Made by a program: the position numbers and the translations under genes. Of a stretch of 64,000 bases of DNA, positions 38 through 62,486 are shown in pieces (the stretch's first letter is position 1; each line of letters begins with the position of its first letter). The stretch comes from an uncultured virus (IMG/VR IMGVR_UViG_3300034155_000028) (lineage: Duplodnaviria > Heunggongvirae > Uroviricota > Caudoviricetes): the IMG/VR virus record IMGVR_UViG_3300034155_000028; one strand, written 5' to 3'. The notes beneath the pieces were generated by a model. The model made no database searches. It was given only the letters and a program-made list of their open reading frames with translations, and was not told where the DNA came from.

Positions 38-361
38 TTATCCTTTCCAAGTTTTAGGAGCAATCTCTGGATGTTGATTTAAATAATCTCTCCAATATTG
101 TTTTCTAACACTTTCTGGATAAATCCTTTCTTGTTCAGGTATAATACTATGGGTTCCAGTAACTATAGCTATTAAACATTGTTCACGTTTTTTTGTGTGT
201 TTAAAAGCTTCTATTAAATAAATTAATCTATGGTGACTAGTAACCCCACAAATACCCCAGCCAACTGATTGGTTTTTTATAATAGCATGTGACACTTGTC
301 TTCCGGGAAGAATATACCAAATATAATTGTCAGGGTCTTTGTAGTCCATAGTTTTTACCAA
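38..361 (-). CDS. Hypothetical protein (likely ATG start near 349)
   Basis: ORF track; the annotated TTG start lies inside the TTACCAAAGA motif. Confidence 0.6.
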   Translation of the reverse strand: MVKTMDYKDPDNYIWYILPGRQVSHAIIKNQSVGWGICGVTSHHRLIYLIEAFKHTKKREQCLIAIVTGTHSIIPEQERIYPESVRKQYWRDYLNQHPEIAPKTWKG

Positions 362-375
362 AGAATTTAATTCTT

Positions 376-1179
376 TTATTTACATATACGATTAAATGTT
401 GTTTCAAAAGCTTTATATGTGTCTGAGTTTTTATTTGCATATACAGCAAATTCTATATTGTCAAAATATGATAATAGTTCTAAGTTCTTTTTAAATAAAC
501 TAGCTACTACCCAGGGATCATTTCCAAAGACACCACAACCCCAAGCCCCTAAAACAATATTCCTATGGCCATTTAAAATCATAGTTCTTAGAATGATAAC
601 CATTCTACGATCTAATACTTCTTTAATTTCTTTTCGTAATTCAGAATCGCAAGCACTATAATTTGGAGCAGGAGATGTTACTACAGAAATTAAATAAGGC
701 TTATCTAACCATTCCCCATTATCTTTTTTAATCACAGGAACATCTGGTGAGTAAATTGTATAATCTAAATATAAACTATCTGCTAATTTATTCTCTGCGT
801 AATACTCATCATGATTACATAAAGTATGATACAGAGCAGATGATCGAGCAATGCTTTCCTCTTGTGCTAAAGCTCCAGCCATAAAAGCCCCACCAGGATG
901 ATAAGCACTAGCAAAATTTAATACACATACATTGCTATCAGAATATCTATAACCTGATTCTAGTGTTGTTTCTTGTGTTACGTATATATTTGGTTTATTG
1001 TTTTGTTTTATATCACCTTTAAAATAAACAGGATCATTTGGATTTAGTAATACTGAACTGTTTACAGCATTATTAACAAGCTGGGTTAGATCAATTGTTT
1101 GACCAGCTATATTAGTATAGCTTCCAACCTTAATAGCATTCATTGTTTCTTTAGCAATTTGTACAGCATTAATTGACAT
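376..1179 (-). CDS. TIGR02452/DUF2263 family, bacterial-type poly(ADP-ribose) glycohydrolase macrodomain
   Basis: LNFASAYHPGGAFMAGALAQEESIARSS (GG-x-QEE catalytic loop) and LGAWGCGVFGNDP motifs. Confidence 0.9.
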   Translation of the reverse strand: MSINAVQIAKETMNAIKVGSYTNIAGQTIDLTQLVNNAVNSSVLLNPNDPVYFKGDIKQNNKPNIYVTQETTLESGYRYSDSNVCVLNFASAYHPGGAFMAGALAQEESIARSSALYHTLCNHDEYYAENKLADSLYLDYTIYSPDVPVIKKDNGEWLDKPYLISVVTSPAPNYSACDSELRKEIKEVLDRRMVIILRTMILNGHRNIVLGAWGCGVFGNDPWVVASLFKKNLELLSYFDNIEFAVYANKNSDTYKAFETTFNRICK

Positions 1180-1198
1180 TTTATATTCTTTCTTTTAA

Positions 1199-2077
1199 TT
1201 AAACAGGATTATTAATTTCTTCTAATATTTTAATTTTACGTGCTCTAATCTTATTTTCTTTATGTACAATAGCAGCAATATCTTCCAAATCAATTTCTAT
1301 TTTAAATAACTTCCCTTTATTATAATATGATAATGCTCCATATTTTGTCCATGCTGATAATCCAAAACTATCTTCCTCATTTATATTATAATTAGCATTA
1401 CTTTCATATTCTCCCCCAACTTCATAATGATATTGGAAATTAAATCTAGAATATCCATCTTCCCTACATGTTTTATATGCAATTACTTTATCTCCAATAA
1501 TTTCATAATCTGTATTATTTTTAATATATTCTCTTTTAAATTCTTTATCTTTATCTAACCAACATGTGTTAGGAATTTCTAAATTATATTCTTTGATAAA
1601 TTCCGGGCTTAACTTTTGATAACTTGATATTAATATATTATACCAATCTACTTCATCAGAAAACTCTCTAATAAATTTTTCGCTTAAGTTTTGATATTTT
1701 AATATATTATACCAATTTACCTTATCAGAAAACTCTCTAATAAAATCTTCACTTAATTTTTGATATATTGATATTAATTGCCAATTTACTTTATATTTAA
1801 ATTCTCTGATAAATTCTTCACTTAGTTTTTGCCTACCTGATATTGGCCACCAAAATAAATTTTCAGAATTTTTCCTAATAAATTCTTCACTTAATTTTTG
1901 ATACTCCGATATATAATCCCAATATACCTTATGAGAAAATTCATTTATAAATTCTTCGCTAAGTATTTGATAATATGATACCAAAGTCCAATTTACTTTA
2001 TCAGAGTTTTCTCTAATAAACTCTTCGCTTAATCCTGGTGTTCGTGATATTTCATCCCAATCTTCTTTGTTTAACAT
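1199..2077 (-). CDS. Tryptophan-repeat protein (22-aa repeats) with a C-terminal globular domain
   Basis: About 7 units of WxxISxYQKLSEEFIREFSDKVN; the C-terminal AYKTCREDGYS...FGLSAWT domain is shared with 18357..19184. Confidence 0.8.
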   Translation of the reverse strand: MLNKEDWDEISRTPGLSEEFIRENSDKVNWTLVSYYQILSEEFINEFSHKVYWDYISEYQKLSEEFIRKNSENLFWWPISGRQKLSEEFIREFKYKVNWQLISIYQKLSEDFIREFSDKVNWYNILKYQNLSEKFIREFSDEVDWYNILISSYQKLSPEFIKEYNLEIPNTCWLDKDKEFKREYIKNNTDYEIIGDKVIAYKTCREDGYSRFNFQYHYEVGGEYESNANYNINEEDSFGLSAWTKYGALSYYNKGKLFKIEIDLEDIAAIVHKENKIRARKIKILEEINNPV

Positions 2078-3047
2078 AATATAAATCTTTCTTTGGTAAA
2101 AACATTAAGTTCCATTGGTTTAATATTTCTAATTCTTTTTCATTTACAATACCAGCATTTACTAAAGATATATATAAAGTATTTAAATTTTCTATTTTAT
2201 TACCACTAAGACAACACTCATCTAATATTTCTATAGTTTTCAAAACATCTGAATACATTTGAATTTCATCTACAAAATCTTTCATGTAATCATCTCTAAA
2301 CCTGTTTTGATATACAATAGATTTAGAAAATCCTAAATATAAATTATCTTCTCTTAACAGTCTTTGTGTAATATAAGATCTAAGTATATCAGCAAACCTC
2401 CACGGTACAGTAGATGGAAAATACATATATGGAAAACAACCCTTGCTCCAAAATGTACTCTGAGAATTAAATGGAGCATATGTATTATTGTTTAATATAA
2501 ATGGGTTTTGTACATTAAACACACATGGTTTATTAAAAACCATTCTATAAATAGCATCTACATCAGGGTCTTGATCTATTAAAGTTTGCCACACCCCAAC
2601 GTTTTTAGCAACACCTTTTCCTAAAGTATAATTTATTTTTTTATTTATATAACTTAATGGAAAACCCCTATTCCAAATTTTTTCACCTGATAAATACCCA
2701 TATATATTTGCAAATTTTTCAGAGCTTGTTAATATATTATCACACACAAGTCCAGCATCAAAACGCCAAAAATCATATGGTATATTATCATCATCTGTTT
2801 CATAAATCATATCACTACCACTCTGTATCGCTTTTATATATCCAAGATTCTTTCTACTATATTTGTTTGCACCAATAAGCTTTGATAGTTTAGTATCTTC
2901 CTTATAAGGTATAAAATCAATTTTTGAATCATTATATTCTGGGGTTTTGGAATCTCCAACCAGTATAAGTTTCCAATTTGGAGTGTTTTTGAATTTTTTA
3001 ATTGATTCTGTTTCAGAATTAATACTTGTAATAATTATACTATTCAT
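2052..3047 (-). CDS. STELLO/DUF288-like glycosyltransferase
   Basis: VGDSKTP, SRKNLGYIKAI, YETDDDN (DxD-like), DPDVDAIYR, APFNSQSTFW and RFADILRSY motifs. Confidence 0.8.
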   Translation of the reverse strand: MNSIIITSINSETESIKKFKNTPNWKLILVGDSKTPEYNDSKIDFIPYKEDTKLSKLIGANKYSRKNLGYIKAIQSGSDMIYETDDDNIPYDFWRFDAGLVCDNILTSSEKFANIYGYLSGEKIWNRGFPLSYINKKINYTLGKGVAKNVGVWQTLIDQDPDVDAIYRMVFNKPCVFNVQNPFILNNNTYAPFNSQSTFWSKGCFPYMYFPSTVPWRFADILRSYITQRLLREDNLYLGFSKSIVYQNRFRDDYMKDFVDEIQMYSDVLKTIEILDECCLSGNKIENLNTLYISLVNAGIVNEKELEILNQWNLMFLPKKDLYYVKQRRLG

Positions 3048-3080
3048 TAATATTTTCCAATTCTTTTACCAAAGAAATAA

Positions 3081-3536
3081 TTAACCATTTATTATATCAC
3101 TTTCCAGTTCGATTTGATATTGTTCATTGTTTGGTAAAGGGTTTCGTGTAGTATAATAATATACATCATCTAGATTTCTAAACTTATCAACTAATAATGT
3201 TTCAAAATCTCCGTGTAATTTATATAATGTTATTGGATATTCACACTCAATTGTGCAATTAGCTACTAATTCTGAAATTAGTTCAGAATCATTTACATCA
3301 TCATCTTCATCAATATCTTGGTTTGGACATTTCCAATAATCTGTTCCAAGATATTTGATTACTAATTCAAAAGCCCTAGTAGTGTTATGGCACGCATCAG
3401 CACATTGAAATGGTGTGGATACCCAATCATCATCATTAGATGCTTGGTAATCTATATCACTAGATGCCTGTGCAAAATCACAGCGAATTTTTAATATATC
3501 AAACCCCAAATCACACGTATATATGTTTATTGTCAT
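3081..3536 (-). CDS. Hypothetical acidic protein
   Basis: ORF track, co-oriented and abutting its neighbours. Confidence 0.6.
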   Translation of the reverse strand: MTINIYTCDLGFDILKIRCDFAQASSDIDYQASNDDDWVSTPFQCADACHNTTRAFELVIKYLGTDYWKCPNQDIDEDDDVNDSELISELVANCTIECEYPITLYKLHGDFETLLVDKFRNLDDVYYYTTRNPLPNNEQYQIELESDIING

Positions 3537-5518: not shown

Positions 5519-6073
5519 TTAAATGGTACATAAATAATATTCTCTATATATTTGCTGACTGGCCTTTGTTAAAGTTGCTGCATCATCAACGAACCTTAAT
5601 GGCCAATCTTTATTCCATGCGTTTAAAACAAGATGTTGTGTAGTATCTAATTTACTAAACCAATTAGGAATTGTTATTGGGTTAATATTATTGTTTAATA
5701 ATATATTTGCTATCTCATCTGTTAAAACACAAGACCAACCAAGCTCTGGAAACCTTTTAAAAAATTCAATTTCTGTTTCTAAAAACTCAATTGAAAATAT
5801 AATCTCTGGAAAAGAATCTCCCTCAAAATCAATTGAATATAATTTAATTAATTCTTCCCAATCAATATTATATAATTGATCTTTTGTGAGATTTTCTAAA
5901 TTAATTTTCTGAAAACCAAGCAGAAACCCCGGCCACAATATTGCTAATTCTTTTCTGTCTGATTTGTTTAATCCACAATTTTCTATATCATATCTGCAAT
6001 GAGCTTCGTTATGCTCGATAATATTTCTTAATGTTTTAATTGCATATTTAGATAAATTAATATTAATTTTCAT
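5519..6073 (-). CDS. Hypothetical protein, paralogue of 30401..30949
   Basis: Shared GLNxxD and FF...P.(L/I).W...DE(I/M)A.ILL.N.I blocks. Confidence 0.65.
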   Translation of the reverse strand: MKININLSKYAIKTLRNIIEHNEAHCRYDIENCGLNKSDRKELAILWPGFLLGFQKINLENLTKDQLYNIDWEELIKLYSIDFEGDSFPEIIFSIEFLETEIEFFKRFPELGWSCVLTDEIANILLNNNINPITIPNWFSKLDTTQHLVLNAWNKDWPLRFVDDAATLTKASQQIYREYYLCTI

Positions 6074-6154
6074 ATTTTGATAATTTAAAACGCGATGTTG
6101 TAATTAAGAATTGGTTTAGTTTTTGCTATTTGTTTTACCAAAGAGTTATTGTGT

Positions 6155-6592
6155 TTAAGGAAGAGTGAAAAGTTCTAAAGCTTCTTCAAAAGGAATATCA
6201 TTAAGGATAATAATACCTTCTGTATTTGTTGGCCGAGTTTTTATTGTATAGATTCTTTTATTTATAGGTGCATTTGATTTACGAAACACAATATATTTCT
6301 TCAATAATGATGTGAGTTTTTTACTCCTCAATTGTTTCTCAAGAATATTGCTAATAAAAAAGTCTGCATTGACTGGAATATCCATTCCATAAGCTTGAAT
6401 TGGAGGAAGTGTTTTGGTATATTCTTCAATTTTATTATGAAGAGCTGGGGGTGTAATCATACTTATACCTCCAGTGCCTTGGTTTTCTACATGTCCACTT
6501 TTGATTCCATTAACCCAAACATCTGCTGTAAACGCTTGAGATTCTTGAGACATCGCTGCACTAGTCTTTACGTTTTTTAGTTCGATTTTCAT
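6155..6592 (-). CDS. Hypothetical phage protein
   Basis: MKIELKNVK...SQESQAFTADVWVNG...VENQGTGG. Confidence 0.65.
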   Translation of the reverse strand: MKIELKNVKTSAAMSQESQAFTADVWVNGIKSGHVENQGTGGISMITPPALHNKIEEYTKTLPPIQAYGMDIPVNADFFISNILEKQLRSKKLTSLLKKYIVFRKSNAPINKRIYTIKTRPTNTEGIIILNDIPFEEALELFTLP

Positions 6593-6627
6593 TTATTTAA
6601 ACCATCACTTTCTAAATCATATCTAGT

Positions 6628-6894: not shown

Positions 6895-6908
6895 AATTAG
6901 CCTTTAGA

Positions 6909-7235
6909 TTATATTAGGTCTAATTTAAATCTTTTAATAAATTCAGGTGATAATTTTTGACTGTATTTTAATATTCTCCAATCAACAAACGCGGAAAATT
7001 CTATTATAAATTCTTCGTTTAATTTTTGATGAGATGATATCTTAACCCAGTTTACTTTATTAAAATAATCTCTAATAAATTTTTCACTAAGCTTTTGATA
7101 TTTTGATATAGAATACCAATCTATGTTATGAGAATTTTCTCTAATAAATTTTTCACTTAACCCTTTGGTGCAGGATATTTCTAACCAGTCATTACAGTTG
7201 TTTTTTAAATCTTCTAATTGGTTTTTGGTTAGCAT
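6909..7235 (-). CDS. Tryptophan-repeat protein
   Basis: About 4 WxxIS.YQKLSE.FI repeats. Confidence 0.8.
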   Translation of the reverse strand: MLTKNQLEDLKNNCNDWLEISCTKGLSEKFIRENSHNIDWYSISKYQKLSEKFIRDYFNKVNWVKISSHQKLNEEFIIEFSAFVDWRILKYSQKLSPEFIKRFKLDLI

Positions 7236-7535
7236 AAGATATCCATTATAACAGCTGTAACACCTATTGATTTTAGATTACATATAATTTCATTTGCTTG
7301 TCCTTCTGAAATATCATATAATACTATTGTAGATATTTTATTTGTTATATCTTTAACTTCTTGAAGACTACATGATAATATCTTTCTGAGTTCTTTCATT
7401 AAGAGCACTTGATTTGTTCCAGTGTTTTTTATATATAAATGACATCTTGCATACCCTGTACCATCACCAAGATAAAAACTCTCCTCCATATCAATTGTAT
7501 AAGCACATGCAGTACTCATTTTAGTTATTGTTGTT

Positions 7536-7787
7536 TCATTTGACATAATAATTCACAATTTCTAGTTTGCACCCACACCATGGGTATACCACACCTCTAT
7601 TTGTTTTACAACATCTTTTAAAAAATGACATACATTGAGACTCCGGTCCTTCATTTGCTGCTTCACATCTAAAACATAATGCTTCACATCTCTCTCTCCT
7701 ATCCTGTTGTGTTAATTCTGCTGCTTCATATTTGTTTGATATTGTTAATATACATATTGTCAATAATATTTTTATTAAACTAATCAT
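7536..7787 (-). CDS. Small Cys-rich putatively secreted protein
   Basis: Hydrophobic N-terminus followed by 8 Cys. Confidence 0.5.
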   Translation of the reverse strand: MISLIKILLTICILTISNKYEAAELTQQDRRERCEALCFRCEAANEGPESQCMSFFKRCCKTNRGVVYPWCGCKLEIVNYYVK

Positions 7788-9637: not shown

Positions 9638-9976
9638 TTAACCTAGGTTTATTTTATCATAAAACTCTTTAATAAATTCTTCACTAAGCTTTTGGGTTTC
9701 TGATATATTATACCAATCTACTTTGTTAGAAAACGCTCTAATAAATCCCTCACTTAATTTTTGATAATATGATATATTATACCAATCTACTTTATTAGAA
9801 AACTCTCTAATTAATTCTTCGCTTAATATTTGATGTCTTGATATATAAAACCAATCTAATCTATCAGAAAACTCTCTAATAAACCCTTCACTTAATCCGC
9901 AGGTCGCAGAAATTATTTGCCAATCTTGTATATTGGAACTTGTTTTGTGGCTTTTAACATCTGCTTTTTTTGGCAA
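9638..9976 (-). CDS. Tryptophan-repeat protein (start uncertain)
   Basis: 4 repeats; TTG start and an N-terminus divergent from its paralogues. Confidence 0.7.
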   Translation of the reverse strand: MPKKADVKSHKTSSNIQDWQIISATCGLSEGFIREFSDRLDWFYISRHQILSEELIREFSNKVDWYNISYYQKLSEGFIRAFSNKVDWYNISETQKLSEEFIKEFYDKINLG

Positions 9977-10022
9977 ATACTGAAAACATTGTAATACAAA
10001 TCTTTCTTTGGTAAAAATATAA

Positions 10023-10565
10023 TTATTCTATTAAGTCTAATTTAAATTCTTTAATAAATTCTGGAGATAGTTGTTGATGTTTTTTAATTAATTTCCAATT
10101 AACTAAAGCTGGAAATTCTCTAATAAATTCTTCGCTTAGTTTTTGATATCTAGATATCCAATTCCAACTTACTTTATCATAGTTTTCTTTAATAATTTTT
10201 TCATTTAACTTTTGATATCTTGATATTAATTTAAAATCTAATTTATTAGAAAACTCTGTAATAAATTCTTCGCTTAATTTTTGATATATTGATATATTAC
10301 ACCAATTTATTTTATGCAAAAACTCTTTAATAAATCTTTCATTAAGCTTTTGATATGCCGATATTAATTGCCAATCTACTTTATCAGAAAACTCTCTAAT
10401 AAAATCTTCGCTTAGTTTTTGAGATGCAGATATATAATTCCAATTTACTCTATCCAAAAACTCTCTAATAAGTTCTTCACTTAGTCCAGGTGTGGCAGAA
10501 ATATCTGTCCAATTTTGTATGTCGGGATTTGTTCTTATATCTTTTAATTGCTTTTGTGTTAACAT
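10023..10565 (-). CDS. Tryptophan-repeat protein
   Basis: About 7 repeats of 22 aa. Confidence 0.8.
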   Translation of the reverse strand: MLTQKQLKDIRTNPDIQNWTDISATPGLSEELIREFLDRVNWNYISASQKLSEDFIREFSDKVDWQLISAYQKLNERFIKEFLHKINWCNISIYQKLSEEFITEFSNKLDFKLISRYQKLNEKIIKENYDKVSWNWISRYQKLSEEFIREFPALVNWKLIKKHQQLSPEFIKEFKLDLIE

Positions 10566-10630: not shown

Positions 10631-11548
10631 CTATTCAGAATCTTCTTCAACAATTTCTTCTGGTATACTTTCAACAGTAGTCTTACTATTGATTATATTA
10701 CAACCCTGAATAGCCGTATTTAAAAGACTAGTAATGTTATTTACCGCCTCTTCAATTTTATTACTCATATCAACAAGACTAAACGTATCCATTCCTTTTA
10801 ATTCATCATCTAAAATCTTAGTAGCCATTCCCTTAATCATTGTATATGCACTACTATAATAACCCTCTACATGCCAAGTACCAGAATCAGTACGTACCAT
10901 GTATGTCCAGTTTAACTTATCAGCGGCTACTAACTTCCTCCTGTTATCAATTGTAATCTCACAGATTTCATGACCAGTTTTTGTTACCAAAGAATCTTCT
11001 TTTATTTCTGGCTTCGGATCAATTCCAGCTTGCTTATATCCAAGCCTATATGCTGACTCCAATCCAGTAATTTTCTTATTCTTAATCGCTAACCTAAACT
11101 CTGTAACAAATTCATCCTCTTCTAATTTACAACCCCTTTCACCTTTAAATTTATTATAAATTGTCGCTGCCGTCATTCGTACTTCACCAGTAATTCTTTG
11201 AGTAATCCATGGTTGAAGATGAATAATATATGGATCTAAACTTGATACCTCTGGCTCATCATCTTCATTAGATGCTGATGTAGACGTATCTCCAATCTGT
11301 TTATACCCCGCTCGCTTAGCTCCAACAATACCAGTAATTTTCTCGACCTTTACTGCGGCCCTAAACCCTTTAATAAAATCATCTTGCGACAATCCAATGG
11401 GATTAGTTTTTGTAAACTCAGCATATATATTTGCAGCAGGCATTTTTTTACCGTTACAAATATTTGCATCTACAAAGGATTGAATTGATACTAGGAACGG
11501 AGTAATTAGTGAAAGCGCTTTTTCTTCAGTGGTATTTAATTCGATCAT
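10631..11548 (-). CDS. Protein with two tandem winged-helix-like repeats, putative DNA-binding
   Basis: MPAANIYAEF...FRAAVKVEKITG...RAGYKQ repeated as MTAATIYNKF...FRLAIKNKKITG...RLGYKQ; the fold is inferred. Confidence 0.55.
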   Translation of the reverse strand: MIELNTTEEKALSLITPFLVSIQSFVDANICNGKKMPAANIYAEFTKTNPIGLSQDDFIKGFRAAVKVEKITGIVGAKRAGYKQIGDTSTSASNEDDEPEVSSLDPYIIHLQPWITQRITGEVRMTAATIYNKFKGERGCKLEEDEFVTEFRLAIKNKKITGLESAYRLGYKQAGIDPKPEIKEDSLVTKTGHEICEITIDNRRKLVAADKLNWTYMVRTDSGTWHVEGYYSSAYTMIKGMATKILDDELKGMDTFSLVDMSNKIEEAVNNITSLLNTAIQGCNIINSKTTVESIPEEIVEEDSE

Positions 11549-12051: not shown

Positions 12052-12882
12052 TCACGCCGTTTTCTTTTCTTTTTTAGCTTTTGAAATTGTTTCTTTAATA
12101 TTTTTCTTTGTTACCCCAGCACCAACTAAACTTTCTTTTAAGATTTTTTCTACTTCAGATGAACTAACTACTTCATTTGTTATTTTTTCAGAAACCAAAG
12201 TGGTTAGCTTATCAAAGAACAAATCATAATACTTGGAATGATCAAATGTGTCAACTGATAATTGATCTATTAACATTTGACCCATAGTCAAAAGCTCGGT
12301 TGATAGCGGAACCTTATCACACATATCATCAAAACTACGCACCTCACTACTGTAAAACATTTGGTGCATTACTAATCCATGTTGATAAGGACGAATAATA
12401 ACTAAACGATCCATACCCTTAGAAAACCAAGTACCAACCGCTGCCTTATTTGAATTTGAAAGCACTTGATATAATAATTGATAAACTGTATCCATACCTG
12501 TATCAGGACCAGTATAATAATTTTTCTCAATTGCAATAGGATCAATATCTGCAATTGAAATAAATTCTTCTAAATCAATTGTATCTTTCTGTGTTTGAAT
12601 ATTATCAATCTCTTCTTTAGTAAGGGTTACAAATTTATTCTTTTTATATTCATAACGCTTATCTGTATTTACTTCCTTGCTTTCAACAATTGGAATTTCT
12701 TTTACTTCTACTTCTGTAGTTGTTTCTAATACGGGTGTTTGCGTTATATTAGAATCAATTTGTTTGTTTGGTAAAGGCTTAGAGAACGAAACCTTTTGGG
12801 CCATACCAACAAGATAAAGCTTTAGATTAATAGTTGTTTGACCAAGAACTACAGATACTGTACCAACGCTTCGTGATGCCAT
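12052..12882 (-). CDS. ku: Prokaryotic Ku-like DNA end-binding protein
   Basis: MASRSVGTVSVVLG..INLKLY, YEY..KFVTLTKEEI, IDLEEFI..IDPI.IEKNYY.GPD, YQLL, RLVIIRP, EVRS, Y.D.F pattern. Confidence 0.88.
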   Translation of the reverse strand: MASRSVGTVSVVLGQTTINLKLYLVGMAQKVSFSKPLPNKQIDSNITQTPVLETTTEVEVKEIPIVESKEVNTDKRYEYKKNKFVTLTKEEIDNIQTQKDTIDLEEFISIADIDPIAIEKNYYTGPDTGMDTVYQLLYQVLSNSNKAAVGTWFSKGMDRLVIIRPYQHGLVMHQMFYSSEVRSFDDMCDKVPLSTELLTMGQMLIDQLSVDTFDHSKYYDLFFDKLTTLVSEKITNEVVSSSEVEKILKESLVGAGVTKKNIKETISKAKKEKKTA

Positions 12883-13345
12883 GATATTTATTTCTTTCTT
12901 ATGTTTGTTACCAAAGAATTTATATTATTAAACAAGTGTTAGTTTTGGTTTTATTGGGCCAATATTTTCTAAATATTTTTCAGCCCATTCGTTACAGACG
13001 CTTATTCCTAAATTATTATCGTCATACCAATTTAAAACATTTAGATCATTAATATTAATAAAAGCAACAAATCTACATCCTGTTTTAATTCGTACTTTTT
13101 TAAATTTATTATATGCTTGGTTAAGTTCGGTTTCTGAAATTATTCCATATAAACTTTCTGTTATTTCAAACATATCTTCTTTTATAAACCCTTGTTTTAC
13201 TGGTTTAGTTTTATTTCTAAAATGTGTTTCAACAATGTCTGAAGGGTTTTTGTTTGATAACCAAACCGTTTGATTTAAAACAGTTATAATTTCTAAAAGT
13301 TGTTCTTTATCTAAATCATCATATTCCATAGTGTTTATCCATATT

Positions 13346-14446: not shown

Positions 14447-14935
14447 TCAAATATTTAAAATATGTTTTGCATATTTTACAGATCCGCTTATGGTTGTTAA
14501 TATTGTTTTATCCCCTCTATAATAAGCGGCTGCTAAACGATGATATCCGTCTTGAACAATATATGTAACCTCAAACATTCCAGGAATACCCACATCAATA
14601 TCAATTGGTACATCGGATTTATTAACTACAAAATAAGCAATTCTTTCTACATGATCATTTCTATTCCAATCTCTGTCACCTTGATAATATTTGTTTAATA
14701 ATTTATTATTATCAATTGCTTCTTTGATTTCTTGTGTAGTTATTGGAGATGTTATTTCAGCCCATGTACTGTTTTCAAGAGGATTTAGCTCTTTAATAAT
14801 TTCTAAATCTAAAGAAATTTCTTCAACCCAATCTTGAGTATTGGGTTTGTGTTTAATAACCATATATAATTCCCTAATATAATATAAAATTTTTATTAAT
14901 AATATCAAGCCAACCAGACAAACCAGGATAACCAT
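14447..14935 (-). CDS. ParB/Srx N-terminal-like domain protein (true start probably downstream)
   Basis: PIDID...IVQDGYHRLAAAYYRG. Confidence 0.65.
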   Translation of the reverse strand: MVILVCLVGLILLIKILYYIRELYMVIKHKPNTQDWVEEISLDLEIIKELNPLENSTWAEITSPITTQEIKEAIDNNKLLNKYYQGDRDWNRNDHVERIAYFVVNKSDVPIDIDVGIPGMFEVTYIVQDGYHRLAAAYYRGDKTILTTISGSVKYAKHILNI

Positions 14936-15701: not shown

Positions 15702-15714
15702 TAATATATCTTTC

Positions 15715-45976: not shown

Positions 45977-46585
45977 TACTCCAACTAATGGTGGGTCGCA
46001 AACCATAAACATAGTAGATTTTTTAATAGAATTAATTCTTTGCTCTTCTCCAATTTTGTAAAAGGTACAAATAGAGTTTTGAATTTTAAATGTTTCAGTT
46101 AATATTGGTTGAGATTGTGTACTGTTTTCAGTTTTGATATCAGCTGGTCTTGTTACCATTTTATATGCTAATACTAAAAATAAAATCAGGAAAGTAAAAA
46201 CAGCAACAATACCTATAGATTTTATCATAATTTATTTTTCTCGTACGCGTCCAAAAGCTCTGCTAATACCGATTCCCTAATGCTGTTTGGTAACTCAGAG
46301 AAATCGTACCCTTGCATACGTGCTCCTTCTTGAAAATTACCAAGAAGTTCATCGACAAAGCGATAACTAACTATGACTAGCGGGTATTCTTGTACGATGC
46401 TCTCAGGTGTTGAGTGAGTGCCGAGAACTACATTTACATATCCTTCACGGTCTTTGATTTTATTCATAATTTATTTTAACCAATTAAATATCCAATAAAA
46501 AACAACACCCCATAACCTACACCAAATATAAAACAAATCGATATCGCTATCAAAAATACAAAAATATTTTTAAACATATTATTAT

Positions 46586-47755: not shown

Positions 47756-48310
47756 TTAAGATGCCTTACGAAATGCTTCCAAATCTTCCGAAGTAATCTG
47801 AATCAACTGATCCTCAGGAGTGCCATACAATGGATGACCCACCAAATTTACCATCGCCGAATCATACCTCTGCTTGAATACCGCAGGCTTCGGTCGACTG
47901 TCTCCAGCATTAGCAAATTTATATGCCAACCGCTTTGCCAACGCAAACTCTTCCGGTGTCGCTGTAATTTTTGATTTTAGCAAAGCCGTACGTTCAGCAC
48001 TCTTTGCCTTTACCAATGCCTTTGCTTCTTCCTTAGTCATCTTCGGCTTCTTCTCAACTTCAGGATGAATCCTAGGACGACCTACAGGCCGCTTCTTTGT
48101 CAAACCATTTACCTTTTCGGTAAGTTCCTTTACCCGATCAAGAAGTGCCATCATCGTACTCTCTTTAACAGTCACCTCTTTATCACCTGTTACAAATGCA
48201 TTGTCTTCTGCATCAACTTCTTCTTTGGTAAAATCCTCGGAAGAAGTGTTGCCAACCAACGTATTGAAATCAGGATTCTCATCAGAATAATCAGAAATAT
48301 TTTGCGTCAT
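47756..48310 (-). CDS. Acidic/basic protein with AT-hook-like motif
   Basis: KKRPVGRPR; acidic N-terminus and coiled coil. Confidence 0.6.
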   Translation of the reverse strand: MTQNISDYSDENPDFNTLVGNTSSEDFTKEEVDAEDNAFVTGDKEVTVKESTMMALLDRVKELTEKVNGLTKKRPVGRPRIHPEVEKKPKMTKEEAKALVKAKSAERTALLKSKITATPEEFALAKRLAYKFANAGDSRPKPAVFKQRYDSAMVNLVGHPLYGTPEDQLIQITSEDLEAFRKAS

Positions 48311-50744: not shown

Positions 50745-50836
50745 TTACCAAAGAATTTAGATTTGTTTCTTAGAGAAGATATTATAAGGCTGTCTACTAA
50801 ACCTAACTTCATTATTAAATCTAAATTCTTTGGTAA
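50745..50836. repeat. 20-bp perfect inverted repeat built from two motif copies, 52-bp spacer
   Basis: TTACCAAAGAATTTAGATTT (50745-50764) and AAATCTAAATTCTTTGGTAA (50817-50836). Confidence 0.9.
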
Positions 50837-52106
50837 AAACTATTTATGAAATTAAATAATAGATATTAATTATTATAACTACCATTATAATAATCTCAAT
50901 CTCATGCTCCCTCTTTTTCTCTTGAATCTCCCTGGAATATACATGTTGGTCCAGTTCCAAACTATATCATAAATTGTTCGCTTGAAATTATCTTTAAGGA
51001 GGTGCTCTAATCATTTTTATATTTCTTTCAAATGATATTAAACGGAAAGCCTACTTCTCTCATACCTACTACCAAACTCTCATAAACACCATCTTTTAAA
51101 GCTATCTTGTCCGATAAATATAGTTCTCGAGACATTTTCTTTGAAGCTTCTTTATCTACTTCACACAGCATACCATGATATAAACACTTGTCATGAAATA
51201 TAGTATTTGTTAGTAGTTCGCTTGTCCAATCAATCTGGTATCCCTCACCAATATCTTCATCAAAATTAACTAGAGGTAAATCATCTTCATGTGAACAGCT
51301 ATAACTTTCTATAAATTTCTTGGTTTTACAGATTGCTTCTTTGCTTGCCCAATAAACACGAACACGACTCTTTCGTGCATTTTGTGTTGAATAAGCTATG
51401 AACTTATCATCTAAAAAATAAAACTGAGTACCAACCCATGTATCCGTACAATACCAACACTCTAACCAATAACTTACTAAATTTGTATTACCATTATCAC
51501 ATTTTTTATAATCAATATCTATACCAAATTCTTTTGCTAAAGTATCAATAGCATATAAATCAGGATTTTTCTTATTTATTCTTTCAATTACTTCTTTTAT
51601 TTTCATTTTACCAACTTACCAACAATGCCTGTATTAAAAGTGGGTATGTTGTTGAAATATCAAGGCCTGTTTGAAACCTTAATTGTTGCAAATATTCTTT
51701 AGTGTTATATATGTCTAAACCCAACTCGTCAAAAGCTTGCTTGGTGATTTTTACAGAACCTGCTTTGCAAGAAGCTTCTTTAATTATCTCAGCAATAGGT
51801 TTGTATAAATCATGCTGTTCTTGTTGTTGTTGCTTTAAAAACTTGTCGTAATTACATCTTGCAGTAAATGCGTCTATCATTTTTTTAATCCTATTTACAC
51901 AAATAAATTGCAGGAACTATACAATATTCAATTAATTTTCCCTGTATGTTTCCTTCAATTGTTTTACCACTACAGCTTTGGTTATCGAAAATACAATATT
52001 CTCTCTGATATGAATAACAACAGTTTTCTACTAAATATAATCCTGCCCATGGTATCGAATCACCTGTGCATTCTAACATTTTATTTTCTCCAAATAATTT
52101 GTTGTG

Positions 52107-53378: not shown

Positions 53379-54438
53379 AGCTTAATTGCTTTTTTGATTG
53401 TTCCCTAACAATTCCTCTATCGTTGTTTCTGTACACTTACCACACAATAACTCTGTTGTTAGTTCTGTTACTTTATTTTCAATTTCTGTTTTTTGCTCTG
53501 GTGTCATTATATTTTCTAAAGCATCATCATATGTGGAACAAATATCTACCAAATCTTGTCGTACTAAATGATAAAAAGATGTTATGTTTTTCAGAAATAA
53601 ATTGTTTTGTTCTTCAGATAATGTTTCTGAAATTATTTTGTTACACCCAATAACAAATTTTACTTTATCCATTGAAATATATTTCAACCCCATCAAGCAT
53701 ACAACAACATGATCCAATATGATCTTTTGAAAAATTACACTTGCACTTTAATTGTGTTTTAGGATCAATATACATCTTTTGACATGCTACGATTTCATAA
53801 CATATCCTCTTTGTATTAGCAGAATAATTTCGTACGCTATTCAACAACCAATTAGGATCTTCTTCCATAAAAATATATTTAATTTCTTTGGTAAAATTAT
53901 TATTTGTTATATTAAATTTCTTATTCAAATCAAAGGGGCTTCTTTAGCGCTAATACCTAATTCTTGAGCGCGTTTAATAATTGCTACAATATCAGTTAAA
54001 GCATCCAATTGATAAGACATTCCATGGTCTCTTGCCTCTGCTGCCTTAACAGAAATATTTGATAAACATTGCCTAATTAGAATTTCGTATTCACGTTTTG
54101 TTATATCAATAACCTTAGCTTTCACTACATGAACAATTTGGAATATCCTCGTCTGGAGCTATATAAGCGTAATCTCCACATGAAGAACACTCCCACCATT
54201 TCCAATCATCAGGAATATCACCCTCAACAATTCCATCGGTTGGATAATTTGTTAGGTCTAGAGTCATAAAGGTGAATCTTTCTCTTGTATTGCTTCTTTC
54301 AACTGTTTATCAATCTCTTCCTGTACTTCGTTGGTCTCTCTTCCCCTGCATGCTTTAATCTGTCCATCAGAATCAAATCTCTTATCTTTTCGCATCCCAG
54401 CTTTGTGCATTTTATTCCTTGGTTTGTTATTTTTTTTG

Positions 54439-54512: not shown

Positions 54513-54895
54513 AAATATTATTTACTCTACCTCTTTTTCTTTTAAATATTTCTCTATGTCTTTAAGACTATCTTCACTGATTTTCCATTCCCCATGCCTG
54601 TGTAAATGTCCCCCTAAACATATTCCCTTTATCGGATTCCCTTTATTGTTTCCCTTAAATGGATTCAATAAAAACGCCGCACTACAAGTCTCATAAGTCG
54701 TTATAACTACAGAATGATCCGCATACCTTAATTCATGAAATTCATGGTTTTGCCAATATATATCTTCCTCACTCATTGGGAATTTATTTCCATCCCCATC
54801 TATCATGTAATTATCTGTATCTTCCCCTATATACTCTACCATTATCTGTAAAGGATCTTGAGACATTATTTTAATCTTTCTTTGGTAAAATTAAA

Positions 54896-55206
54896 TATGA
54901 TTCCGGTACTTTCGTACCGAAATCATAAATGGAAGTTACCTTCCAGTCCAAATTATCTTGCGACAATTTGGATAATTGCTCTCTTCGAGACTGACTACCA
55001 TAGAGATTTCCAACTAGAGAAACATTAGAAATATATTTTTCCCTGCTACAGGAAGATGATTCAGTTTCCTGTATCTTTTTATTCTTACGAATAAAAAGAC
55101 CGGATACTCTAGTTATTGGTTTAACTTGTTTATACCTATTCTCTAGCAACAAGTAGGTTCTAACAAGCCCCTTCCAAATCTAACAGATTTTGAAAAGGGT
55201 TATAAC
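54896..55206 (-). ncRNA. Stand-alone omegaRNA copy (no nuclease gene) ending in a GAAA hairpin
   Basis: Homologous to 17165..17421 with compensatory changes; followed by TATGATTTCGGTAC-GAAA-GTACCGGAATCATA and a T-rich tract. Confidence 0.85.
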
Positions 55207-57977: not shown

Positions 57978-58379
57978 TTATTCCTTATTATCGCAATATT
58001 CGAAAGTTACACGCTCGCTGTAACATCCGTTAGATGTTCCCAACCATCTAATTGTCACGCTTCCTTTAATTGAAGAAAATTTATAAAATGTCCATGTGTA
58101 AGAGTCAATATCTACATTAAATCTTTTAGACTCTAATAGTTCAGAATTATCAATATTAGTAACTTCTTCAGCTACCAATAAAGGATATGCAATTAAATCT
58201 TCTATATCTCCAATAATTTCTTCTACTTGTACTTTTTCACAACAACTTTGTTCATGGTAAAAATCAGCACTGGTTCCATCTGTAAATTTCAAACTTATAA
58301 TATCACTATATTGTTCCGCTCCAGAAATTTCTTTTATTGTCTTACCCAAAATATCTGTTAATATATTAATTTCTGTCAT
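57978..58379 (-). CDS. Hypothetical phage protein
   Basis: FYHEQSCCE.V..EEI.GD, WTFYKF..IKG.VTIRWLG.SNG.YSE. Confidence 0.7.
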   Translation of the reverse strand: MTEINILTDILGKTIKEISGAEQYSDIISLKFTDGTSADFYHEQSCCEKVQVEEIIGDIEDLIAYPLLVAEEVTNIDNSELLESKRFNVDIDSYTWTFYKFSSIKGSVTIRWLGTSNGCYSERVTFEYCDNKE

Positions 58380-60542
58380 TGTTATTGTTTTAATTGAATT
58401 GTTTTTACCAAAGAATCTTTATTCTTGGGTTAAAATTACCTGTGAGCCAGTAGGTATTTTACTCCAATCCCCTGCAATAAAAGTTCCTTTATCCATAGGG
58501 TTTATAACCATACCAATTGTTAAAGATGGATAATCTTCAGCTATTAAAACAATTCCAGTTTCGTATGATGTACATAAAACAATTACATCAGCATCTACAG
58601 TCGTTAATTGATAAAGACCAGGAAAATCAGGTGGTGGAATAATAATTTTAGATTTCATGTTTTACTCATAATGCTTTTGACTTCTAGGAAGATATCGGAA
58701 ACCTTTCCCAATATATTTTTCTATATTATATTCTCCATGATAATTTGAACCAATAAACATTCCAACTTTATCATGAAAGATTCCAGAATTATCATATTGC
58801 TCTTTCGTAATAGTTGTTGGCATTATTACATGCATTACTTTATCGTAAAGAAATATTCCAAGCGCTGTTATAATGAAATATTTATCTGTTCCATTGTAAT
58901 ATATTTCACCAGTTGCTTTGCTTAATTGATCTTTATACATTATATCTTTACCAAAGAATTAATCTACTTCCCACCCATCCTCTAACATCTCTTCATATGT
59001 TTTGTATTCGTCTACGTCTACCCCAATTAATTGTTCCCATAATGGAATCAATCTGTTTATATCAAACATATTCTTCAAATATATCTTACTACCCTCTCCT
59101 TCTACCAAAAAACCAGATTTGGGAAACATCCCTACCGGCTTCTTTCTATTTACTATTGGTAGTATCGCTATGTTTGGCCAACTGTCCGGATTAGATATAA
59201 ATTCTAAATCTTGCCTCTGTTGCTCATTTAACATTTTAATCATCTACCTTTTCTAAATTTCGTATATCTACTATCTTCGCTTCCCCCATCGGCTCATCTA
59301 GTAATACATAATATTTGTTAAGATATAATATATCAAATGTTCTATCATTCCCATCTTCAGGATTAATAAATTTTGCTTTATCTCCTACTTTCATATTTTA
59401 CCTCAAAAATTCTACAAACTCACCTGCATAATAATATACATCCGAAAACCCATTTGCATGCCCCATCTCCCACACCTTAAAAAACAACAGCTCTGCCTTC
59501 GGATGTCCTACAATACCAAGTTCAATAAATAAATCACGCTTGAACTCTTCCATCAATCTATTGCAATCTTCATAATATGCTTTGTGAACAACAGGATCAT
59601 GCTTCGCAAATGCATGCGGTAGCTTTGTTGTATAGTATTTGTTTTGAATCTTTTCACTTATATTTGACATTTTAATTACTCCCAGGAAATCACCAACAAA
59701 AAATCAGCGGTACTTGTTTTATCAGATTGATATGAGGCTTTAAAATTTCTATCGTTTAATATCTCCATAATCTTTAAACCCAACATATAATTTGAAAACG
59801 GAACCGCAACTTTATTTAAAGCATTGTCTTTGGCTAAATTTATTAGAGTATAAATATAAACCAAATACTGATGTATATTTAACATTTTAAATATATTCCC
59901 ATGAAATTATCATTAACCAATCATTATCAATTGACCCAATACTTACACCTACACCAGAACTTTCTAATTTTTCTTGAATGTCTAATGCTAAGGTATAATT
60001 TGGAACTATGTGTACAAACCTGTTAGTATTATGATCTCTAGCTAGTTTGGCCTGCTTAGCAATATAAACCAAATGTTGATGTATATCTAACATTTTAAGT
60101 ATATTCTTTTATCAGTTTAATAATTATTAATGCTGCAAAAACATTTATAAAACTAAGCGTTGGCAACACTGAAAAACTAGACACCAAACAATGATTCCAA
60201 AGATATTGGATAACTATAGATAGCCCCGCAATCTGTGTTAAAAACCACACAATAACTTTAATAAGTTCTATTGAGGAAAGAATTAGTATCTTAATCCCCT
60301 CTTTAGCTTTTGTTGCTAGACTTGATTCGTGTTGGTTACGATAATTATACATTGAACTATTTTCTTTATATTAAAATTGTTTTTACCAAAGAATATGTTT
60401 TATTCTACCTTGTCACATGAACATTTCGGCTCTTTATCGTTTGGATCAAGCCATGCATAATCCCCACATTCAGGACAATCCCACCATACCCAATCGGCTG
60501 GAATAGTATAAACATCCGGATCTGGATATCTTGTCAAATCAT

Positions 60543-61037
60543 TCATGTTAATATATCTTTTGCTTGATTAAATAATTGCTGTGTCGTAAAACCTATATTC
60601 CAATCCGTCTTTACCAAAAAAGTTTTTACTTTATCCATGTCATCTCGGTCATCTATTATTACAAATTTATCTATTTCTAACCATGTGCTCTCTAACCATA
60701 CCAATATTTCTCTTCCCCGTGGCCCCTCTATCTCCGGTGTCTTTCCGATTATTCCTACCTCTAATCCATGGAATTTTAACAAATCCTCTATATCACCAAT
60801 CGTATCATATCTCCGCCAATCAGAACTTAATACTATTTGAGAATTTGTCTCCTTCGCCAACCTATTAATTAACCCTACCGCTATTGGGTTTATACTCCTT
60901 ATCGTCCTTAATCTCCACTTCCATTTAGTATCATTAAGGAACCTTTTCTCTTCCTCACTTGCCGGTGATAAATCTATCTCATGTCCCTCTAATACTATTA
61001 CTCCATCTATATCTAAAAATATAATGTTAAGAGTCAT
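60543..61037 (-). CDS. HAD-superfamily phosphatase (RNA-repair-associated HAD type)
   Basis: IFLDIDGV, IVLSSDWR, RGREI..W, FVIIDD. Confidence 0.82.
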   Translation of the reverse strand: MTLNIIFLDIDGVIVLEGHEIDLSPASEEEKRFLNDTKWKWRLRTIRSINPIAVGLINRLAKETNSQIVLSSDWRRYDTIGDIEDLLKFHGLEVGIIGKTPEIEGPRGREILVWLESTWLEIDKFVIIDDRDDMDKVKTFLVKTDWNIGFTTQQLFNQAKDILT

Positions 61038-62159
61038 AATGCCTATTTTTATTTAAATAATATTTTATCGCTCACCATTTATTCGAAATGGATTATTTGC
61101 CGGTTTACCATCGTAGTCAGGGCCAACCCAGGTATGATCCCAGATGTAAGCTAAATGTCTGTACCAGGTTTCTTGATTTAAAAACCCGCAATATCCACAA
61201 TAATCTTCGTTACCATGTTTACAAATACCAATACTCGATGATTTAAATCTCCAATTCGCGAAATCCTTTACCTCTTTCATATAAAACTTCTTTCGTTTTT
61301 TTTAGGTGTGTATATATCCCCGATTCTCCCCTTTATATTCTACCCCATGATACATATCATTTCTCCAAAAATAAAAATGATCCATTCCATTCTTCAATAT
61401 CCCTATCAACTCTTCCAATACTACCTCATGCTGTCTTCCATATCTTCGTAAACTTTCAAGAATTGTTTCAGGAATGTTTCCAGTTCCATCACAAGCTGGA
61501 CATGGTGTAGATTTTACAAATTCTCCACCGTTACATCTAGGACATTTATAATTTTTCATTTTGTTATCCAGGGCAACCAAATAGGACTTAAACACCAACT
61601 AATTAATGTTCCCATTAATAGTGAATTGCAATTAAGAATTATTTGCCACTTAAGATTTTTCCAAGGAGGGTTTTCCACGTGGTGTGTTTCTTTCCAGTAT
61701 AATTGCTACAGCCGCCAATTCAAATATATCTGTTCCCGGTGTTCTTATAAAATAATTCTCTATCCTTGCTACCTTAGAACTTACCTCTATCTCTGGTATA
61801 AATACAGACTCCCCTACCCTCGGTATCAACAATAATGTTGTCGTTATCTCTGTCTCTTGTTGATACTCCTTATCAAAATATCTTATGTATGCTTTCATTT
61901 TTACCCCACTTTAAATATTATTCCTCTTTAATTTCTAATCTTCCCATTATTACCATCTGTTCTGCCCCATATACCTTTTGTTCCCCACAACTCTCACACT
62001 CATATTTCTCAGCATCAGGTTCACAATTATCCCTTACCTCCCCACATCCTAAACATATTCCTTGATATGATTCACTCAAAGAGTCATATTCTTCCTGTGT
62101 TACTATAAACTTATTCTTCTCTATTCCCTTAGCTGTTTTATATGTTTTAATTTCCATGA

Positions 62160-62486
62160 TTATGTTGTTACCAAAGAATTTGTTTTATTTACAAGTTGTT
62201 CGTATTGCTCTGGAGTTAACTGAACTCCATGTACAATATATAAAAAACTTTCTCCGTAGCTAATCCCTATACAATACTCACAATTAAAACAATCATTGCA
62301 ATCTATACAACCTATACAAGCTAGGCAATTAGTACAATCTTTACAAAACTCACATCTATTGCAATTGTTACAATTTCTACAACATTTACACAAATGGCAA
62401 TTATGATTTCCATTTGGACTCATATCAACTATAGGTAGTTTCGAAAACTCTTCCGGCGTTAGCTTTAACAATTCTTCTGGTGTCAT
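62160..62486 (-). CDS. Cys-rich CxxC-repeat protein
   Basis: A long run of Cys every third residue; ends NSLVTT, which is encoded by the dispersed motif. Confidence 0.65.
   Translation of the reverse strand: MTPEELLKLTPEEFSKLPIVDMSPNGNHNCHLCKCCRNCNNCNRCEFCKDCTNCLACIGCIDCNDCFNCEYCIGISYGESFLYIVHGVQLTPEQYEQLVNKTNSLVTT

Follow-up and report, generated by a model that had tools for sequence, protein, structure and literature searches.

A sharply conserved ten-base DNA word kept in both orientations across a lineage of apparently huge phages: a putative protein recognition site

Short exact words kept throughout a genome are known from bacteria, where the DNA uptake sequences (DUS/USS) of Neisseria and Haemophilus and the Chi sites are words of 8–12 bases that occur about once per 1–5 kb, are kept by selection in coding as well as non-coding DNA, and have known readers (the ComP receptor, RecBCD/AddAB), with Chi being polar. 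We know of no such genome-wide signature word described for a phage lineage. The present analysis concerns a non-palindromic word of ten bases, TTACCAAAGA, that recurs throughout a 64,000-nt stretch of DNA from an uncultured virus of the Caudoviricetes (IMG/VR record IMGVR_UViG_3300034155_000028; this whole stretch is referred to as the window).

Among phages, the stoperators of cluster A mycobacteriophages, bound by a repressor of the L5 gp71 type, are described in the site-related passages of PMC9283540 as asymmetric sites that are present in dozens of copies per genome, lie mostly in short intergenic regions and have a monomeric reader; their orientation strikingly tracks transcription, and reversed sites lose their function. 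The start-associated sequences (SAS) of cluster K mycobacteriophages, as presented in the corresponding part of PMC3203893, have a near-uniform orientation, lie 3–7 bp from the start, contain AGGAG and occur only in the non-structural half of the genome. The elements named PeSL of T4-type phages consist of a sigma-70 promoter and a hairpin, are concentrated in hyperplastic regions and have internal breakpoints of insertions and deletions (PMC2839356), and their flanks can recombine (PMC2839356; PMC4122927). A literature search for our exact string returned primers only, and a phrase search for intergenic motifs of jumbo phages returned halovirus promoter repeats only and nothing comparable.

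Within the window (28–35% GC), exact TTACCAAAGA was found 27 times, 16 times on the plus strand and 11 times on the minus strand. These are the same counts and coordinates as in an initial reading made from the letters alone (referred to as the sequence-only reading), and its estimate of fewer than one copy by chance proved sound, as 100 dinucleotide-preserving shuffles yielded 0.32 copies (sd 0.53, maximum 2). The enrichment also stood against the high-order background that had been proposed as a check. Specifically, Markov models of order 3, 5 and 7 trained on the window gave 0.79, 2.27 and 13.7 copies, respectively (maxima of 3, 6 and 22 in 100 simulations each; note that the order-7 model largely memorises TTACCAAAGA), and 27 copies were reached in 0 of 100 simulations at each order. 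The word was the commonest non-trivial 10-mer of the window, the remaining recurrent words being traced to a 23-residue coding repeat in five paralogous genes, and its one-mismatch variants (n = 22) were background-like for the most part.

As the sequence-only reading had stated, all genes run one way: the convincing open reading frames (ORFs) are all on the minus strand, and the 148 ORFs of at least 40 aa cover 90.6% of the window (genes were called with our own greedy ORF caller, not a gene finder, and this caller tends to over-extend starts). Copies for which the gene-sense strand reads TCTTTGGTAA are referred to as class A and those for which it reads TTACCAAAGA as class B, the class being assigned by the locally dominant gene strand. 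The 27 copies of the window are the following.

355..364, + strand: copy 1, class A; 11 nt past the stop of 376..1179, with an ATG 5 nt on
2090..2099, − strand: copy 2, class B; within the final codons of 2052..3047; the repeat-protein gene 1199..2077 starts (ATG) 12 nt on
3066..3075, + strand: copy 3, class A; flanked by the 3081..3536 stop (5 nt upstream) and the 2052..3047 ATG (18 nt downstream)
6135..6144, + strand: copy 4, class A; flanked by the 6155..6592 stop (10 nt upstream) and the 5519..6073 ATG (61 nt downstream)
10005..10014, − strand: copy 5, class B; flanked by the 10023..10565 stop (8 nt upstream) and, 15 nt downstream, by an ATG that precedes 9638..9976
10984..10993, + strand: copy 6; deep in 10631..11548, translated as S-L-V-T
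12908..12917, + strand: copy 7, class A; flanked by the 12928..13329 stop (10 nt upstream) and the ATG of the Ku gene 12052..12882 (25 nt downstream)
18049..18058, + strand: copy 8, class A; 3 nt past the stop of 18062..18328, with an ATG 5 nt on
18341..18350, − strand: copy 9, class B; 6 nt past the stop of 18357..19184 and 8–12 nt before the ATG of 18062..18328
19634..19643, − strand: copy 10; deep in the radical-SAM gene 19189..20133, translated as I-T-K-E
25290..25299, − strand: copy 11; in the poorly coding stretch 25217..25523, context ambiguous
30409..30418, + strand: copy 12, class A; makes up the C-terminal codons (NSLVTT*) of 30401..30949; the 30081..30404 ATG follows 4 nt on
33639..33648, + strand: copy 13, class A; in a gap of 108 nt; the 33417..33623 ATG follows 15 nt on, and an AAGG ribosome site lies between the two
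36680..36689, + strand: copy 14, class A; within the C-terminal codons (NSLVKTKQ*) of 36666..36980; an ATG follows 31 nt on
39624..39633, − strand: copy 15, class B; in a gap of 123 nt; the radical-SAM gene 38099..39595 starts (ATG) 28 nt on
40405..40414, − strand: copy 16; in the gap 40251..40524, ambiguous, with a one-mismatch inverted partner (TTACCAAAAA) at 40375..40384
45803..45812, + strand: copy 17, class A; the 45421..45795 ATG follows 7 nt on; 29 bases are identical to copy 18
45958..45967, + strand: copy 18, class A; flanked by the 45971..46228 stop (3 nt upstream) and, 7 nt downstream, by the ATG of a short ORF whose end lies just before copy 17
48222..48231, − strand: copy 19; inside 47756..48310 at codon 27, translated as F-T-K-E
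50745..50754, + strand: copy 20, class A; right arm of a 20-bp perfect inverted repeat with copy 21, with an ATG 29 nt on
50827..50836, − strand: copy 21, class B; left arm of the same 20-bp inverted repeat, with a sigma-70-like match (50899..50872) just upstream in gene sense
53885..53894, − strand: copy 22, class B; ATG 16 nt on
54879..54888, − strand: copy 23, class B; directly after a terminator-like hairpin (54927..54896); the 54522..54866 ATG follows 12 nt on
58405..58414, + strand: copy 24, class A; flanked by the 58419..58658 stop (4 nt upstream) and the 57978..58379 ATG (25 nt downstream)
58948..58957, + strand: copy 25, class A; flanked by the 58959..59243 stop (1 nt upstream) and the 58662..58940 ATG (7 nt downstream)
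60383..60392, + strand: copy 26, class A; 7 nt past a stop and 30 nt before the ATG of 60095..60352
62168..62177, + strand: copy 27, class A; within the C-terminal codons (NSLVTT*) of 62160..62486; the 61918..62157 ATG follows 10 nt on

Where some 21 copies had been placed between a stop and a start or at gene ends, our recount assigned 22 of the 27 to junctions (1–11 nt past a stop or in final codons, with the next ATG 4–61 nt on), three to deep intragenic positions (10984, 19634 and 48222) and two to ambiguous contexts (25290 and 40405). Copies 8 and 9 bracket the 88-aa gene 18062..18328. The shared C-termini that had been pointed out are borne out by the translations, which end in KYKNSLVTT*, NKTNSLVTT* and TQLNSLVKTKQ*.

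The word was likewise enriched in related huge phages, themselves uncultured. An IMG/VR scan for inverted pairs of the word revealed a 131-kb contig (G006; 31% GC, CheckV completeness of 25%) with 40 copies (28 forward, 12 reverse) versus 1 for a reversed-word control, and a 17-mer led to two contigs from the same metagenome, G008 (54 kb, 12 copies) and G009 (68 kb, 20 copies). Pooled, these three contigs (29–31% GC) contained 72 copies in 253 kb versus 4 for the control; they are not syntenic with the window and have only multi-copy gene families in common with it. A metagenome scan with the SNF2-family helicase of the window (21519..24779) yielded distant relatives with helicase orthologues at 56–62% identity and a GC content of 46–51%, of which one 23-kb locus (L183) held three copies, all at junctions, and another (L184) a single copy, with the helicase ATG 8 nt on. 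In IMG/VR, L183 has its counterpart in G010 (392 kb, estimated to be 91% complete, 43% GC), which contained 41 copies (23 and 18 in the two directions) versus 2 for the control. The word thus persists across a deep split (relatives at 56–62% helicase identity, 43–51% GC) and across a GC shift of 13 to ~20 points. In 80 loci (1.16 Mb) from relatives whose helicase is at most 43% identical, 15 copies were found in total and no enrichment was seen. Neither an IMG/VR protein search with the window helicase nor a metagenome scan with protein 46586..47338 gave a match, and a 16-mer scan gave at least 118 matches that were mostly due to chance. The window and the three AT-rich relatives (four AT-rich contigs) together hold 99 copies in 317 kb, and the addition of G010 (five contigs) brings this to 140 exact copies in 709 kb.

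With regard to gene content, G006 carries genes for the major head protein, portal, terminase, baseplate and replication, and G008 and G009 carry nucleotide metabolism, replication and translation-related genes. The word was present in every module seen, i.e. the accessory region (window), structural and replication modules (G006), and nucleotide metabolism and replication modules (G008 and G009), and it is as common in core modules as in the accessory region. The tie to an accessory region that the sequence-only reading had drawn was consequently lost, the word being equally dense in the structural and replication modules of the relatives.

Over the 99 copies of the four AT-rich contigs, the consensus reads T-R-T-T-K-TTACCAAAGA-A, and its span is 10–16 bp (a 24-bp duplex form with the word is one carrying TGTTTTTACCAAAGAATT). 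This longer consensus was found at junction copies, with intragenic copies and those of G010 mostly showing the core only. The word is unusually sharp, with little tolerance of mismatches, because in the same four contigs the exact 11-mer TTACCAAAGAA was observed 93 times versus 0.48 expected, and all of its single-mismatch variants pooled only 52 times versus ~15 expected (most of them with G-to-A at position 9 or C-to-T at position 4). Copies are single words of at most 30 nt. A miniature mobile element was ruled out, as the longest identity between any two copies was only 33 nt. An IHF-like reading, considered for the resemblance to WATCAANNNNTTR, was rejected because the TTR part is not kept in the GC-richer relatives and the 'N' positions are invariant. 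The density of the word is about one per 2.4–10 kb genome-wide, and its spacing along the genome was near random (coefficient of variation of 0.84 versus 0.99 for random placement, which is in the lowest 4% of simulations and a weak departure).

A considerable part of the copies resides within genes. Specifically, 45 of the 140 copies were located at least 150 nt inside open frames of at least 150 codons, where they are translated as SLV[TKN], FG[KN], [FLI]TK[DE] or LPK, every stop-free frame but one being used. When each long ORF was subjected to 300 synonymous-codon shuffles, 2.6 ± 1.5 copies were obtained for the AT-rich contigs and 2.2 ± 1.4 for G010, versus 34 and 21 observed copies, respectively. 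Inside genes, the word is therefore under selection at the DNA level, with an excess of roughly tenfold over these shuffles. One intragenic copy is kept in orthologues (YGTSLVTGYE), and other orthologous pairs have the exact word in one genome and a compatible peptide without the word in its counterpart, which amounts to positional turnover of copies under continuing selection.

Orientation proved to be free. In gene-sense reading, the 140 copies of the five contigs comprised 76 of class A and 64 of class B (binomial p = 0.35); the junction, start-only and stop-only copies comprised 54 of class A and 46 of class B, and both classes occurred in similar proportions at junctions and inside genes. 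After removal of near-identical flanks, 48 class A and 35 class B copies remained in the AT-rich contigs. Both classes have the same 5′ flank on the motif strand (T.TTK) and an A at +10, so that it is the DNA, rather than the direction of transcription, that defines the unit. Moreover, syntenic structural regions of G006 and G010 have opposite majority orientations, and an orthologous gene of 551–555 aa has the word at its start in opposite directions in these two phages. This lack of conserved polarity, together with the 23 to 18 distribution over the 392 kb of G010, led us to reject a polar signal of the Chi/KOPS type; the case that the sequence-only reading had made against such a signal, a Shine-Dalgarno sequence or a simple promoter was thereby strengthened.

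The position relative to starts was similarly loose. The distance from word to ATG ranged from 1 to more than 60 nt, and in spacers of more than 80 nt about half of the copies were close to the start and the others close to the stop. Ribosome sites in the window are of the AAGG type (45 of 117 genes versus a 17% background), and where room exists an AAGG/AGGAG site is found between word and ATG. A hairpin was discarded as an idea, since an exact inverted partner within 120 nt was found for only 6 of 99 copies (versus 3% of random positions). Likewise, the word fits neither a Bacteroidota-type promoter (TAnnTTTG) nor an extended –10 element, and the genes use ribosome sites of the AAGG type. 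Because neither a single orientation nor a constrained spacing holds, the evidence argues against a promoter, a terminator, a ribosome-binding site or an RNA signal.

Two pairs of copies can be noted here as separate observations. Copies 20 and 21 form their 20-bp inverted repeat ~35 nt after a TTGAGA-16-TATAAT sequence (50899..50872), which is the top sigma-70-like match in 44–64 kb, and enclose an ORF of 23 codons; this layout (50745..50899) is PeSL-like and the sole such case. The direct copies 17 and 18 (45803..45967), with their 29 identical bases, have an ORF of ~44 codons between them.

Tentatively, we favour the view that the word could well be a site on duplex DNA recognised by a sequence-specific protein, which the phage lineage itself would encode and which would have a genome-wide role. 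Such a protein would read TTACCAAAGA on double-stranded DNA irrespective of its direction, and selection would hold the word at its density of about one per 2.4–10 kb genome-wide. Copies would gather in short spacers because a long exact word is cheapest to keep there, and would also be kept within genes wherever the protein sequence permits. The likeliest role would be a global one, such as marking or organising the phage DNA or affecting transcription globally rather than gene by gene, and would not consist of starting, stopping or translating individual messages. A global role is favoured because the word is selected in structural genes, occurs in every module, and turns over in position at a kept density. 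We infer that the reader is phage-encoded because the GC shift of 13 to ~20 points suggests different hosts. Of the two options that the sequence-only reading had offered, the double-stranded DNA site for an organising or regulatory protein thus remains the favoured one from sequence comparison, and the recombination site of a cassette-shuffling system found no support.

Several points weigh against this recognition-site view. The junction bias is strong, with 52 of the 140 copies lying in the 6.9% of sequence that is non-coding (p ~8e-25 with the greedy ORF calls) and ~100 of 140 at or near gene ends (a stop or start of a long ORF close by); as the greedy caller over-extends starts, the true junction share is therefore higher, and some 'intragenic' copies may be junction copies with mis-called starts. 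Many copies are found 2–12 nt from the ATG of a gene that has no usual AAGG ribosome site, and this closeness and the junction bias would equally suit a gene-expression signal. Given the longer consensus at junction copies than at intragenic ones, there could also be two populations with different roles. Several class B copies have been duplicated along with a paralogous gene family (word 12 nt before the ATG), which inflates the counts, and G006, G008 and G009 may be one single genome. Finally, no word-binding protein was identified among the phage proteins, so that the recognition site is a putative one. The four proteins that the sequence-only reading had named as candidate binders (10631..11548, 14447..14935, 26905..27528 and 47756..48310) show no DNA-binding domain by Pfam (no match at E ≤ 0.01) or PHROG (no match). 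The relatives encode an HU-like protein (G009 8709-9089), a GerE/sigma-region-4-like helix-turn-helix (HTH) protein (G006 120939-121415) and a sigma-like Sigma70_r2 protein (G008 15440-16108), and nothing ties these to the word.

Among the alternatives, a lineage-specific promoter or promoter core, used by the host RNA polymerase with a phage sigma factor, appears unlikely. In this case, one orientation would drive the downstream gene, sometimes from a near-leaderless mRNA, and the opposite copies would be inactive or make antisense RNA. The closeness of ~100 of 140 copies to gene boundaries (with 22 of 27 in the window lying 4–61 nt before an ATG) and the presence of the sigma-like and GerE/sigma-region-4-like proteins just mentioned would suit a promoter, as would a class A copy at G006 6185, in a divergent intergenic region before the first gene of a minus-strand unit, and consecutive genes that are each preceded by the same 26–31-nt version (G006 99809, 100157 and 101189). 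However, both classes occur at junctions in similar numbers (76:64 overall), the distance to the ATG varies from 1 to more than 60 nt, an A/T-rich core resembling a –10 element is absent, and a sigma-70 –10 or –35 is matched in neither direction. Moreover, the word is present in all temporal modules and selected in both directions in long structural genes, and the units after strand switches in G006, G008 and G009 are mostly without it. We regard as quite unlikely a dispersed operator at which a phage repressor blocks initiation and elongation at many sites in the manner of the cluster A stoperators. An asymmetric site of 10–16 bp in dozens of copies, mostly in short intergenic positions or over stop codons, does fit the L5-type sites as far as these are described in PMC9283540, but stoperators follow transcription and lose their function when reversed (same passages of PMC9283540), whereas orientation is random here. 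In addition, one third of the copies are deep in genes, and the annotated 317 kb of AT-rich contigs revealed no repressor, integrase or sign of a temperate lifestyle.

We are similarly sceptical of a cutting or nicking site of a phage HNH, GIY-YIG or LAGLIDADG nuclease, or of the word of a DNA-modifying enzyme. T5-type phages carry sequence-specific nicks, and the sharpness of the word, its free orientation and its genome-wide density of one per 2.4–10 kb would agree with such a site in a lineage that has many nucleases and an MT-A70 methyltransferase. Selection for cut sites would nevertheless require some added benefit, and nothing in the contigs examined, which cannot show molecule ends, points to nicks, ends or modification. 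A crossover or target site for gene-cassette shuffling, by homologous exchange (PeSL-like, as in T4-type phages) or by a site-specific recombinase that builds variable regions, was the second option of the sequence-only reading and seems highly improbable to us. It would be in line with the 26–33 identical bases that neighbouring junction copies can have in common, with the short ORF between direct copies 45803 and 45958, with the gene-size gaps to a close relative, two boundaries of which lie 13 and 26 nt from a copy, and with the exchange that PeSLs are described to mediate (PMC2839356; PMC4122927). We compared the window with contigs of a ~93%-identical relative from another peat sample, from which gene-size gaps separate it (11 joints listed, and 16 further). 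Among the 11 joints listed, only 2 of 22 boundaries were within 30 nt of a copy (13 and 26 nt) and none was a motif-to-motif joint, so the expectation that breakpoints of gene gain and loss would coincide with the word was not borne out at these joints. The ~93%-identical relative in run X4 was without 45088-45931 (the distal part of the 45803..45967 ORF, copy 45803 and gene 45421..45795), with copy 45958 being kept. Joints in run X1 with sides of 20–31 nt at copies were most simply partial alignments of other word-bearing contigs and were not counted as circles or inversions. Furthermore, ~45% of copies run opposite to the others, and the gene blocks have nevertheless remained co-oriented; the word is equally dense in conserved structural modules; intragenic copies are selected, one being conserved in orthologues; and the word is kept at 56–62% helicase identity, far past the homology that recombination needs. 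Hardly credible, finally, is a signal at the RNA level, be it a ribosome-binding site or translational enhancer, an RNA-processing site or the target of an RNA-binding protein. Many copies do lie 2–12 nt before an ATG without a separate Shine-Dalgarno sequence, the 3′ end of class B is purine-rich (AAAGA(G/A)) and merges into GAGG in L183, and the SAS of cluster K are similarly placed, as described in part of PMC3203893. The two orientations would however be complementary RNAs, and both are common at junctions; the spacing is unfixed, with a normal AAGG/AGGAG between word and ATG where room permits; and intragenic copies run in both directions, hairpins being exceptional.

The gene content of the window points to a huge phage. 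Its DNA was matched in a peat metagenome run, with no RNA run among the matches listed, a megablast with 10 kb of the window gave no match to a cultured-phage relative, the window helicase is at most 28.7% identical to the best record (an uncultured 484-kb phage), and the terminase of G006 is at most 25% identical to those of Bacillus phages. Further genes of the window encode an FtsK-like ATPase and a pyrimidine-dimer glycosylase, and a comparison with Rfam returned tRNAs only. The other assigned features of the window are these.

7229..7546 and 31950..32222: L7/L12 C-terminal-domain protein and IF-1
12052..12882: Ku
19189..20133 and 38099..39595: two radical-SAM enzymes
21519..24779, − strand: SNF2-family helicase of 1086 aa, with an intein-like LAGLIDADG homing-endonuclease insert that interrupts the ATPase domain
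52106, 54438, 55315 and 62508: four tRNAs

Translation-related genes of the relatives encode ribosomal protein S21, peptide deformylase and trigger factor (G009 33610-33984, 47925-48371 and 60978-62369). Window gene 376..1179 encodes a microbial PARG. In G008 (8475-9425, 37495-38964 and 52886-53389) and G009 (7757-8671) there are genes for NADAR proteins, an ADP-ribosylglycohydrolase and a PARP-like enzyme that has WGR and regulatory domains, so that the toolkit of the lineage includes genes for both making and removing ADP-ribose marks. The five paralogous genes with the 23-residue repeat (1199..2077, 6909..7235, 9638..9976, 10023..10565 and 18357..19184; consensus around LSEEFIREF.DKV.W..IS.YQK, phrog_3532, some ending in DUF7666) belong to a family with many more copies in G008 and G009, several of which have the word exactly 12 nt before the ATG.

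Another multi-copy family of the lineage is represented by a 411-aa RRXRR/HNH protein gene at 16134..17369 (− strand; Pfam RRXRR 2.8e-31), possibly IscB-like. It has three copies with 81–87% nucleotide identity in G009 (21532-22900, 42163-43512 and 49317-50637), one gene in G008 (29489-30451) and an N-terminal fragment in the window (54871..55177), the latter with a summed contig depth of 59 in the source run versus ~11 elsewhere. It looks like an active mobile nuclease gene. A Cas12f1-like TNB-domain fragment is present at G009 110-502, and in the structural region of G006 (30760-32416) an IS200/IS605-type pair, made up of a small transposase gene and a divergent TnpB-like gene of 402 aa, breaks the otherwise one-directional gene order. 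G010 contains a CRISPR-like array (91730-92620, corresponding to L271 11730-12620) with 13 copies of a 36-nt repeat (GTTTCAAC...ATGTAAC) at a spacing of 69–73 nt. One of its spacers contains the word with its typical flank and may target a gene junction of a sibling phage; no protospacer was found for it in IMG/VR by exact 26-mer. Finally, G008 5893-7275 is a gene for a tubulin/FtsZ-family GTPase (Pfam Tubulin, 1.2e-15), a family also present in some large phages that form a spindle or a nucleus-like compartment.

Huge phages are known almost solely from metagenomes, and the organisation and control of their half-megabase genomes are nearly unexplored. A word that survives a GC shift, is blind to direction and is kept in structural genes would mark a specific protein–DNA interaction to look for. 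It is also a simple tag for binning fragments of the lineage (41 copies versus 2 in G010, and 72 versus 4 in the three AT-rich relatives). A bolder proposal, made by analogy and in our opinion rather doubtful, is that the phages keep a private ten-base 'self word' genome-wide by which a phage-encoded DNA machine tells phage from host DNA. This machine would serve compaction, packaging, recombination or protection from nucleases, following the same logic as uptake sequences or Chi, and the word would then be the first genome-wide identity signal described for a virus of bacteria. The reader protein, if found, would tell whether large phages mark their DNA as bacteria do.

When set against the systems described at the outset, the word has in common with stoperators that one asymmetric short site (~13 bp in the known case) is dispersed in many copies (27 in 64 kb, 140 in 709 kb). 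It differs from them in its random orientation (76 versus 64), in the third of copies that are intragenic and in a genome that is roughly ten times larger; no repressor-like match was found among the window proteins, and HTH and sigma-like proteins are present in the relatives, whose genomes are incomplete. As with the SAS described in part of PMC3203893, it is a lineage-specific asymmetric word just before starts, sometimes with an upstream stop codon. Unlike SAS, however, its spacing varies from 1 to more than 60 nt, it occurs in both orientations, it contains no AGGAG, and it includes the core modules. With PeSLs it has in common the repetition at junctions amid small genes of no assigned function, but it has no promoter consensus, extends to core modules and lies away from the breakpoints (11 joints listed). 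Instead of elements with a sigma-70 promoter and a stem-loop inside, we found single words, with the 50745/50827 pair following a sigma-70-like match. With the bacterial signature words it has in common an excess driven by selection that extends to coding sequence, as seen in the codon shuffles. The bacterial words have known readers, and Chi is polar whereas the phage word is not. It is nevertheless these words, uptake sequences and Chi, that the behaviour of the phage word would by analogy most resemble.

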